From a virus (lineage: Duplodnaviria > Heunggongvirae > Uroviricota > Caudoviricetes), in IMG/VR virus record IMGVR_UViG_2671180884_000022: 30,131 nucleotides of DNA. One strand, given 5' to 3'. Under the pieces are notes generated by a model. That model saw only the letters and a program-made list of their open reading frames with translations, was not told where the DNA came from and did no database searches. Of the stretch, positions 21,296 through 24,325 are shown piece by piece (the first letter of the stretch is position 1; the number at the start of each line of letters is the position of its first letter). Position numbers and translations under genes: made by a program.

Positions 21296-22780
21296 TTACC
21301 AGCTATATTTCACTCCCAGCATGCCCTGAGTATCGCTATAGCCTTTATCACCTAGTTGCACACCGACATTCCCCCACAGGCTAAGGTTGTTATTTACTTT
21401 CGCCTCAACCCCGGTACGTACTTCACCGAGATTACGCGCACCTTCACGGCCTACGGTTTGACCATTCATCTTCACAGCGTAGACTTTGCTGTTGTTGATC
21501 CAATTCGCTTCAATGTAAGGCTGGAACTCACGCTGTTTACCATCGTCACGCTGGTGATGGCTGTTCAGGTAGGTTTTCACCCCAAGTCGCGTTTGCACAT
21601 TTCCGTCGCCTTCCGTTTCAATGCGCGTTCCGTCTTTCCGGGTATGGTCGGAATCTTTCACACCCATCCAGGTGATTTGCGCCTGTGGCTGGACGTACCA
21701 GGTATTCAGCGTCCCTTCGCTGCCGCTAAATGTTCCCGCTTCAAAGGTATACCCACCCTCAACAGAGGCCGTCACACCGCGAGAATCATAGTCGTCAGCA
21801 GAACGGTTATCGGAACTGACGCTGTTATCAAACCAGTTATACAGCGCCCAGCTGTCAACATAAGCGCCGGTCTTATTCGCATCGTTCTGATACCAGGTCG
21901 CGTACAGCCCAGCGCTGTAACCGCTGATGCGCCCATCCGATTTATAACCCACACGATTACTCTGAGTATTACTGTGCTGATTAGCGTAACCTGCCATCAC
22001 GCCAAGATGCCAGCGATCCTGCGCGTTGCTACTCCACTGCGCCAAATCGCCGCCTAGCTGCAATACATAGCGGTTAGCCTGAGTATTTAGCTGACCGTCA
22101 CCGGCCCTTGAACGTTCGTGCCCTCCGACATGACGCATCCACATACTGCTTGCCGACCCCTGAGAATGCAGTGAATCTATATACTGCGGCTCACCCAGAC
22201 GGTCGTGTAAACGATGGCTAAACAGCGAGTTGGCTGCGGCAATGTTGCTGATATAGCTTCCGGCCTCCGGGCGATAAACTGATGGGCCTTCCGGATCCAC
22301 AACAGGGGGATTATTGATGGGGTCGGGCGTATCCGGTGGCGTTACGCCGTCCCATTTACTGGTCAGATACCAGTTTTTCTCGTCATTCCCCTTCCCTTTA
22401 GCCAGCGTGTAGACGTAAGCCCCAGCTTCGACAGTTCCGGTGGTCAGCGCGAAGTTACCTGCAGAATTACCGCCAACCTCAATGAGTTCAATACCGTTGA
22501 CCGTTTGTGCACCGACGCCGCCAATGTTATCAACCCGAACGCGAGTGTTCCCTTGGGTATCGCCTTTCACGTTCATTTTATCGGTGGGCGAATTATCGCC
22601 GCCCAGCGTCGCGTTGAACGTCATCAGGCCATTGTTTCCGGTATAGTTGCCGTTAACGGTCAGTACATTCCCCGGTTTCCCCCCTTCGCTATTCATTTGA
22701 ACCGTGCCGCCATTCTCCAGGTTGCCGCCGATTGTGGTTTTAGCGACACGCAGTGTCCCCCCAAGCATAACGTTCACATC
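21296..22780 (-). pseudogene. AIDA-I / Ag43-like autotransporter, C-terminal ~495 codons only (5' end removed at the IS boundary)
   Basis: Gly/Asn/Thr-rich repeat region followed by a beta-barrel translocator domain ending …GVKYSW. The apparent TTG start of the track ORF lies inside the IS terminal repeat, so no native start or signal peptide is present. Position matches the autotransporter pseudogene next to hipB in K-12. Confidence 0.8.
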
Positions 22781-22788
22781 TGTAGTGG

Positions 22789-23706
22789 TCAAGTAATATT
22801 GGCCACGGTTTTACAGTAAAAATGGTATCTGTTCTCTGACTCTTCCGGCGTCAGCCCACCGTTATAATGGTGAGGTCTGACGCTGTTGTAGTAGTTCAAT
22901 ATGTAATCATTAATTTGCTGCCGGGCCTCGTCCTTGCCTGCGTAACCATTCGTTGGCACCCATTCTGTTTTCAGACTGCGGAAGAAGCGTTCCATGGGGC
23001 TGTTATCCCAGCAGTTTCCCCGCCGACTGACGCTTTGATTTATTCTGCAACGCCAGAGAAGTTGTTGATATTTAAGGCCTGTATACTGGCTTCCCTGGTC
23101 GCTATGGAACACGACATCCCGGGGTTGGCCACGCGTCTCATAGGCCATCCGCAGGGCACTGCTTATCAGTGCGGTATCGGCATGCGCTGACAGACTCCAG
23201 CCGATAACCCTGCGGGCAAAAAGATCCATAACAACCGCCAGATAGCACCAGCGATTTCCTGCCCAGAGATACGTAATATCTCCACACCATACCCGGTCTG
23301 GCTCCGGTACTGCGAACTGACGCTCAAGCAGATTCGGCAGGCTGGTATGCTCCTGACGGGCATTTTTATACTGATGTTTTCCGGGCTGACAACTGCTCAG
23401 GTTCAGATATTTCATCAGACGTCCGGCACGGTAACGGCTCATCGGGACGCCGTTTTGAGTCAGCATTTCAGCCAGAGTGCGCGCGCCCGCAGAGCCCCGA
23501 CTTTGGTTCCACGCCCGGCGTATTTCGCTGCACAACCTGACTCGTGCCGGATTAACCGTATCGCGTCGTTTTCGCCAGTACCGGTAACTGCTGCGGTGTA
23601 TTTCCAGAGCAGAACACAGGCTGACAACCGTGTGGCTGTCACTTAGTCTGGCGGCTATCGTGAACCGTTCAGCGAGTCGGACATTAAGAGCGCGGTAGCC
23701 TTTTTT
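22789..23706 (-). CDS. IS3-family transposase OrfB (DDE catalytic domain), expressed as an OrfAB fusion by -1 frameshift
   Basis: The orfB frame is open from the slippery site at about 23700..23706 to the stop at 22789. It contains a DDE-type integrase core (…[12 protein letters not shown]…, …HSDQGSQY…, …[15 protein letters not shown]…); the track lists only the part after the first in-frame start (22789..23535). Confidence 0.8.
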
Positions 23707-23966
23707 AATATCGTATTTTGTTCCTCCAGACGGCGAACTTGCTTTTCCAGCTCGCGGATACGTTGCTGGTCTGGAGTAATGGGTGTGGCAGAGGGCGTAA
23801 TACCCTGGCGCTCTCGCCTGAGCTGGCGTACCCAGCTCTCAAGCGTGGTTGAACCGACATTCATCGCTTCACTGGCCTGTCGATATGAGTAGCCCTTATC
23901 AACAATCAGCTGTGCACATTCCAGCCTGAACTCAGGGGTGAAGGTTCGTTTGGTTTTCTTGTTCAT
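23655..23966 (-). CDS. IS3-family transposase OrfA (HTH / leucine-zipper)
   Basis: [38 protein letters not shown]…[18 protein letters not shown] resembles IS911 OrfA. The track ORF begins 12 codons upstream at 24002; the Met at 23966 matches IS3-family OrfA starts. Confidence 0.8.
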
Positions 23967-24038
23967 TAAGTCACCTGTTTTGTGTTGTGGTGAGAATATC
24001 ACCTTTCATCAGGTGGCCAAATTTAGTGTGCCACTACA

Positions 24039-24325
24039 ATCAGCACATCATCTTCAGGCTCTTCGTCAGCCTCACGCCGGTTCAGCAGACTGAAATCCAG
24101 CGGATGCATATCCGGATCGCTGAAAAACAGGCTGAGCACGGTGTACGTCAGCCCGGAAAAGTGCATATCCAGCAGAACATCATGAAAATAATGGGTACTG
24201 TAAAAGCGGTGCCAGTCGGCATACTCCGTGGATGACATCCCGGCAAGCATGGCGCGCCAGTCGGGTCGCCCCATCTCACGCGCCAGTTTCAGGGCAAAAC
24301 TCAGCTCACCGTCGAACACTTTCCC
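24039..24325 (-). pseudogene. T: phage lambda-like tail assembly protein T, 3'-truncated by the IS
   Basis: The -1 frame after the G GGA AAG slippery heptamer (24319..24325) reads FDGELSFALKLAREMGRPDWRAMLAGMSS…EEPEDDVL, matching lambda gpT, then runs into the IS right end at 24038/24039. Lambda continues …DVLMQKAAG…; here the Met codon is split after AT. Confidence 0.75.

Follow-up and report, generated by a model that had tools for sequence, protein, structure and literature searches.

An IS3-family insertion sequence joining halves of two separate insertions in an Escherichia coli draft contig, probably by mis-assembly

Results

The join unites halves of two insertions

The window, a stretch of 30,131 nucleotides deposited as virus record IMGVR_UViG_2671180884_000022 in IMG/VR, agrees with contig LPWW01000252.1 in its exact length and in the order of genes across the join described here, and is therefore taken to be the whole of that contig, number 252 of the draft assembly GCA_001606935.1, which consists of at least 252 contigs. 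In this window an insertion sequence (IS) of the IS3 family lies between the 3' part of an autotransporter gene and the 5' part of the tail assembly gene T of a lambdoid prophage of Escherichia coli. Sequence comparison indicates that the window almost certainly consists of the left half of one insertion, in the autotransporter gene, and the right half of another, in T, so that two copies of the element would have been involved. The hybrid join was probably made by the assembly software and not by the cell, in which case the real chromosome would hold both parental insertions, as the sister genomes do.

The first-pass annotation had recognised an IS3-family junction at 22778-24041. The element and its two flanks were correctly identified, but these bounds include the ATC triplet on either side and the element proper occupies 22781-24038. 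The features at the join are as follows.

21296..22780, minus strand: 3' fragment of an autotransporter gene of the ECSE_1600 family (yneO/ydeK locus), recognised by NF011422 and by the TIGR01414 barrel
22778..22780, unstranded: ATC, left copy of the target duplication of the autotransporter insertion, assigned from the parental and empty sites
22781..24038, minus strand: IS3-family insertion sequence, with TG...CA ends and inverted repeats
24039..24041, unstranded: ATC, right copy of the target duplication of the T insertion, assigned from the parental and empty sites
24042..24319, minus strand: 5' fragment of the lambdoid tail assembly gene T (TIGR01715, phage_lam_T)

Both parental insertions were found in four complete E. 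coli genomes, 2012EL-2448, 2015C-3121, STEC2018-553 and 2018-166, which match the flanks of the window at or near 100% identity, 2012EL-2448 being the closest, and in which the two copies are 1.0-1.15 Mb apart. The insertion in the autotransporter gene reads ...TTCACATC-IS-ATCACCTG and the insertion in T reads ...CTGCATC-IS-ATCAGCAC, each with an ATC/ATC duplication, and in 2012EL-2448 the genes H-J are intact beyond the latter. The autotransporter insertion is also present, without the T insertion, in S19-141 and STEC435, giving in total six complete genomes with the identical fragment and the break point at the same base. Three more long contigs (LXPF01000004, JBDIFJ010000001 and AEZR02000050) hold the T insertion in its parental form, and it is thus located at the same base, flanked by ATC/ATC, in seven contiguous assemblies. 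The empty sites could be identified as well; the uninterrupted autotransporter gene of STEC17-183 contains a single ATC (...TTCAC ATC ACCTG...) and the same is true for T (...CTGC ATC AGCAC...) in 10 intact T genes. Since the sister genomes hold the identical IS at exactly both bases, each copy with its own ATC/ATC, the comparison shows an origin from two copies.

When aligned with 2012EL-2448, the left 22.8 kb of the window correspond in one piece to positions 4,851,033-4,873,813 with 100% identity, and the right 6.1 kb, also with 100% identity, to positions 3,773,906-3,779,998 on the strand opposite to that of the left-flank match. It had been argued earlier that no simple insertion could create this junction and that genomes with an intact autotransporter or T gene should be compared. 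Such a comparison, made here, bears the argument out, revealing both empty sites and, in the sister genomes, two loci each interrupted by a complete insertion of its own.

A single plain insertion with an ATC duplication, after which the other flank decayed for unrelated reasons, is in line with the same ATC being found on both sides and with the duplication length, which is typical of this IS. Such an origin is hardly conceivable, as each flank leads, with 100% identity over kilobases, into a locus of its own, the two loci being more than 1 Mb apart in the sister genomes and each having a complete ATC/ATC insertion, and as a target with both flanks is absent from the 5,426 complete RefSeq E. 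coli genomes searched. It was rejected on the grounds of the parental insertions, the empty sites and the separate loci.

Two independent insertions of the identical IS have accordingly taken place in this E. coli lineage. One hit an already decaying autotransporter gene beside hipBA and dif, the other hit T in a lambdoid prophage at a distance of about 1.1 Mb, and a separate 3-bp ATC duplication arose at either site.

The matching ATC triplets

Judged by the parental and empty sites, each ATC triplet of the window belongs to a different duplication. At four other intact insertions, of the identical or a nearly identical IS, the duplicated triplets are CAA, CTG, TAA and TTC, and among 39 further left flanks of the IS two end with ATC. 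Because the other copies duplicate other triplets and ATC ends so few of the flanks, the identity of the two triplets is a coincidence (1 in 64). When a target preference for ATC or CATCA was tested on the 39 left flanks and the four intact insertions no specificity was found, and an apparent extension of BLAST matches past the end of the IS was attributable to chance. Two explanations of the triplets had been offered beforehand, coincidence and a duplication surviving from the original insertion; the former holds, while the latter fails as the two ATCs come from different duplications.

Structure of the insertion sequence

With a length of 1258 bp and its transposase encoded on the minus strand, the element is an intact and ordinary member of the IS3 family. 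Its ends are formed by imperfect terminal inverted repeats (TGTAGTGG...CCACTACA) of 26 nt, 77% complementary, and have the 5'-TG...CA-3' termini of the IS3 family (TGTAGTGGTCAAGTAATATTGGCCAC / GTGGCCAAATTTAGTGTGCCACTACA). Short target duplications of 3-4 bp are likewise a feature of the family, and duplications of 3 bp were found at the parental insertion sites and at the four other sites. The parts of the element are listed below.

22781-22806: left inverted repeat
22789..23535, minus strand: orfB, with a DDE/rve integrase core
23655..23966, minus strand: orfA, 103 aa, with a helix-turn-helix (Pfam HTH_Tnp_1)
23700-23706, minus strand: slippery heptamer AAAAAAG (A6G) for a -1 frameshift, from the orfA frame to the -1 frame
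24013-24038: right inverted repeat

orfA matches positions 1-85 of the profile NF033516 (transpos_IS3), against which orfB alone scores 268.7 bits with a cut-off of 160. Together, orfA and orfB encode the OrfAB transposase of 392 aa, which spans 22789-23966 and carries the Pfam domains rve, rve_2 and rve_3 (PF00665, PF13683 and PF13333) in addition to the helix-turn-helix. An identical copy is labelled 'programmed frameshift' in RefSeq, with a product of 392 aa, and the name given there to the variant found in the window is only 'IS3 family transposase' (WP_085968792.1).

All nine copies of the IS that were compared are identical to the one in the window across the 1258 bp. The copies in T and in the autotransporter gene of the four sister genomes show 0 mismatches to it. 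The IS is found at 6074 places in 2416 of the 5426 complete E. coli genomes and at four places in 2012EL-2448.

Outside E. coli, the exact 28-nt end of the IS was found in 43 contigs of other Gammaproteobacteria among species-representative genomes, mostly at contig ends. The hosts include Serratia, Yersinia, Pectobacterium, Mixta, Rosenbergiella, Shewanella, Pseudidiomarina and several metagenome-assembled genomes. For Serratia, Mixta and Yersinia, which belong to the Enterobacterales, identity over the whole element is ~90-93%, the marine cases have little beyond the IS terminus in common with the element of the window, and a copy in Shigella flexneri is 99.9% identical over the 977 nt compared.

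Origin of the hybrid join

The join belongs to known categories, being an IS3-family element together with either an IS-mediated rearrangement or a chimeric contig. Textbooks cover elements of the IS3 family and the 3-bp duplications they make, as well as the hybrid joins that arise when two copies undergo exchange. To account for the lost flank the first-pass annotation had put forward an IS-mediated adjacent deletion or recombination between two copies of the IS; the participation of two copies was upheld here, the adjacent deletion was not. The possibility of an artefact was overlooked at that stage, the IS being a perfect multi-copy repeat in a contig of a fragmented draft.

Where an assembler links flanks across an IS repeat that it has collapsed, it may pair the wrong ones. 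Because the copies are base-for-base identical, the parental and the swapped arrangement share all words shorter than 1258 bp, and since the two sets of words are equal it would take long-range data for the contig to tell the parental from the inverted arrangement. A crossover point inside the IS was sought and none could be discerned, all copies being identical.

The swapped join itself was searched for in the 5,426 complete genomes and no place covering at least 80% of the join-spanning query was found. The open reading frame (ORF) formed by fusion of truncated T with the IS is present in 63 blocks of the public collection, and among the 24 of these that were read the swapped join occurs only in LPWW01000252.1. 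Other short-read drafts of the lineage typically stop 26-127 nt inside the IS. The two ends of the contig are also located in repeats.

1..270, minus strand: left end of the contig, with the initial 270 nt of gadB, ending 27 nt into a 398-bp block shared by gadA and gadB
29732..30131, minus strand: right end of the contig, within the phage portal/S49 protease genes, a sequence with 2 places in the closest complete genome

In 2012EL-2448 the 398-bp block is identical between gadA and gadB. The assembler had thus failed at a two-copy repeat of 398 bp, yet it crossed a perfect repeat of 1258 bp which has four places in the closest genome, a difference that favours a mis-join.

Some points weigh against a mis-join, which was inferred and not demonstrated. 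An assembler that breaks at gadB might be expected to break at the IS too, and an extra assumption is needed, for example that scaffolding proceeded through the IS contig while repeat contigs of less than 500 bp were ignored, a procedure that would yield just such a contig. Recombination between IS copies is moreover common in E. coli, being the commonest source of large rearrangements in the evolving populations followed in the long-term evolution experiment (PMC4173774; Raeside et al. 2014), and the complete genome of strain A1, from another lineage, carries a comparable join (Rhs'-IS-T5') without a target duplication, so that joins of this kind do arise in living cells.

The last two observations also speak for a real join, formed by RecA-dependent recombination between two inversely oriented IS copies with an inversion of ~1.09 Mb, an event which would in addition leave the reciprocal join, T3'-IS-autotransporter5', elsewhere in the genome. 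In 2012EL-2448, STEC2018-553 and 2018-166 the copies are indeed inverted relative to each other, 1.09-1.15 Mb apart, and a crossover between them in any of these three genomes gives autotransporter3'-IS-T5' in exactly the orientation of the window. The perfect identity of the copies over 1258 bp and the presence of at least one terminus-region inversion in the lineage already (2015C-3121 compared with the others) point the same way. We nevertheless consider such an inversion unlikely, as the join is known from a single contig of a fragmented draft, made by an assembler that failed at 398 bp, and from none of the 5,426 complete genomes, and also on account of the position of the chromosome dimer resolution site.

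19400..19427, minus strand: dif, chromosome dimer resolution site, exact match (28/28; 0 matches expected by chance)

The dif site is located between a fimbrial operon and hipA, 3.35 kb to the left of the IS, and any real rearrangement at the IS of the window would therefore have one end point practically at the terminus. In the inversion considered here dif would lie inside the interval, 3.35 kb from its end point, and would be carried 1.09 Mb. The replichores of 2012EL-2448, about 2.55 and 2.72 Mb, would become about 1.46 and 3.81 Mb, or roughly 28:72; for this calculation oriC was placed near 2.32 Mb, an approximate position derived from yidK at 2.255 Mb and the distance between yidK and oriC in K-12. 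Large natural inversions in Shiga toxin-producing E. coli (STEC) generally avoid major changes of the replichores, and imbalance in the terminus region stalls replication forks and induces SOS (PMC8743559). An inverted chromosome should nevertheless be viable, although unbalanced, because the moved segment keeps its polarity towards dif.

A deletion leaving a single IS, either between direct copies or by an IS-mediated adjacent deletion, was also considered. In 2015C-3121 the copies are direct and a deletion between them would leave exactly the join of the window, and an IS present in a single copy would account for the assembler having crossed it. Against this, the interval in that genome is 1.02 Mb and contains many essential genes, so that its loss would be lethal, and the closest relative of the window has the inverted arrangement and four places for the IS. 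The interval presumably corresponds roughly to 1.6-2.5 Mb of the K-12 map, a region that holds many essential genes. Nor would an adjacent deletion end, to the base and with a matching ATC, where the sister genomes hold the second copy. A deletion of either kind is accordingly very improbable, and together the readings other than a mis-join and an inversion take up only a very small part of the probability.

Adjacent deletion was excluded as a separate candidate, since it would give a new, random end point and not a pre-existing insertion site.

A mis-join thus being the favoured origin, the window calls for caution when hybrid junctions are interpreted: with identical IS copies, a junction of this kind in a draft contig is no evidence of rearrangement, as words shorter than the repeat are equal in both arrangements. 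Should the join nevertheless be real, the window would represent a natural E. coli isolate of a Shiga-toxin lineage with a strongly unbalanced chromosome and a relocated dif, about a fifth of the chromosome, dif included, having moved to the other replication arm. This would be of moderate interest for research on chromosome organisation; otherwise the join has little biological weight.

The four sister genomes also differ among themselves in the terminus region. In 2015C-3121 (NZ_CP027340.1) the locus comprising hipBA, dif and the autotransporter gene is inverted relative to the T prophage when compared with NZ_CP027586.1, NZ_CP075665.1 and NZ_CP075632.1, and the distance between the two loci is similar, 1.02 Mb compared with 1.09-1.15 Mb in the other three. 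Since the locus is inverted at a similar distance, a roughly symmetric inversion spanning the terminus would have occurred within the lineage.

The left flank

The autotransporter remnant covers positions 1310-1806 of the 1806 positions of the profile NF011422, equal to the last ~495 codons of the gene, and holds a pertactin-like region and the beta-barrel but neither the start codon nor the N-terminus of the passenger, which agrees with what had been noted from the sequence earlier. Its score against the full-length ECSE_1600 profile is 1180 bits with a cut-off of 2335, as expected of a 3' fragment. The 5' part of the gene, found to the right of the inserted IS in the sister genomes, carries a frameshift as well, and a second, different IS3-family element interrupts it near the end of the signal peptide. 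With the 5' part frameshifted and a second IS present, the gene would already have been dead several times over.

The gene order in the left 22.8 kb is gadB', pqqL, yddB, yddA, ydeM, ydeN, the fimbrial operon, dif, hipA, hipB and the 3' part of the autotransporter gene. Directly between dif and the autotransporter remnant (19499-21087, minus strand) sits an intact hipBA toxin-antitoxin pair, the coordinates of which were taken from the identical locus of a sister genome and from the ORFs.

19499-20821, minus strand: hipA, intact
20821-21087, minus strand: hipB, intact

When comparing the left flank with STEC435, a deletion of 2,849 bp was found at about 11731-11735 of the window. It has removed ydeP from nt 129 on, the whole of safA and nt 1-178 of ydeO, so that three acid-resistance genes are hit at once. 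The break has a 5-bp overlap and leaves a YdeP'-'YdeO hybrid ORF (11151-11858, minus strand). Among the top matches of the left flank only 2012EL-2448 matches the window unbroken across this deletion.

The right flank

The fragment of T scores 138 bits against TIGR01715 (cut-off 77), covering positions 1-97 of the 111 in the profile. The gene is truncated after codon 93 of 144, and the ORF now consists of 93 T codons followed by five codons encoded by the IS and a stop, thereby reaching 16 nt into the IS with the stop at 24023. The break falls inside a Met codon (...GTG CTG AT/G CAG..., V L M Q K, the slash marking the break), as had been stated before; its position was verified against the 3' fragment of T and the 10 intact T genes. 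At its other end the ORF shares 19 nt with the end of gpG, as it does in intact prophages, a position which fits the G-T frameshift product.

24301..24723, minus strand: gpG, tail assembly chaperone; rightwards from the join, the first prophage gene that is intact

Beyond gpG, the genes for V, U, Z, a head-tail joining protein, FI, the major capsid protein, a decoration protein and an S49 protease follow up to the end of the contig. A search with gpG matched 12,297 blocks, those returned being intact prophages only, and these were used as controls for the empty site.

The T gene and the boundary between T and H in lambdoid prophages carry members of this IS group at no fewer than four different positions in different lineages. 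In PS_131_S11 a copy annotated as ISEc31 (93% identical) separates T from H and is flanked by a CATC duplication, and in SCU-172 a copy of the IS, interrupted by IS30, follows an intact T and is joined to a fragment of J. The region may be a preferred target of the IS or simply a place in defective prophages where insertions are tolerated.

Comparison with known systems

The element resembles ISEc31-type insertion sequences in its imperfect TG...CA repeats, the -1 frameshift of orfA/orfB at A6G, the DDE (rve) transposase, the 3-bp duplications and the many copies in chromosomes, plasmids and prophages of E. coli. It differs in that its identity, over the whole element, to the copies that RefSeq annotates as 'ISEc31 family' is only ~93-94%.

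With chimeric short-read contigs induced by repeats the window shares a join that passes through a perfect multi-copy repeat exceeding the usual read or insert lengths, the occurrence of the join in one draft only, contig ends located in repeats and the fact that other drafts break at the IS. The difference lies in the chimerism here being inferred, not demonstrated.

As in the prophage-mediated inversions of STEC O157:H7 (Fitzgerald et al. 2021, PMC8743559), a real inversion would be of megabase scale, affect the terminus region and have one end in a lambdoid prophage, and the lineage of the window likewise has one terminus inversion (2015C-3121 compared with its sisters). Those inversions use prophage homology and generally change the size of the replichores little, whereas the one implied by the window would rely on an IS of 1.26 kb and displace dif by 1.09 Mb. 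Optical maps and PCR served to verify the joins in the rearrangements described by Raeside et al. (2014, PMC4173774), while the join of the window is known from the sequence of a contig; the implied inversion is also strongly asymmetric about the origin-terminus axis. The likeness to these rearrangements is that one IS is found between the halves of two insertion sites with no matched duplication, which is the signature of homologous recombination.

The closest counterpart at T itself is found in strain A1 (NZ_CP029328.1) and, as judged from search matches equivalent to those of A1, in 13E0767 and OkiPb01716. In the complete genome of A1 the 5' part of T is connected, through an identical IS (0 mismatches), to an unrelated and truncated Rhs gene, with AAG on one flank and GAC on the other and thus no target duplication. 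Compared with the window, the insertion is located 34 nt further along T, the partner is Rhs and the strain belongs to another lineage.

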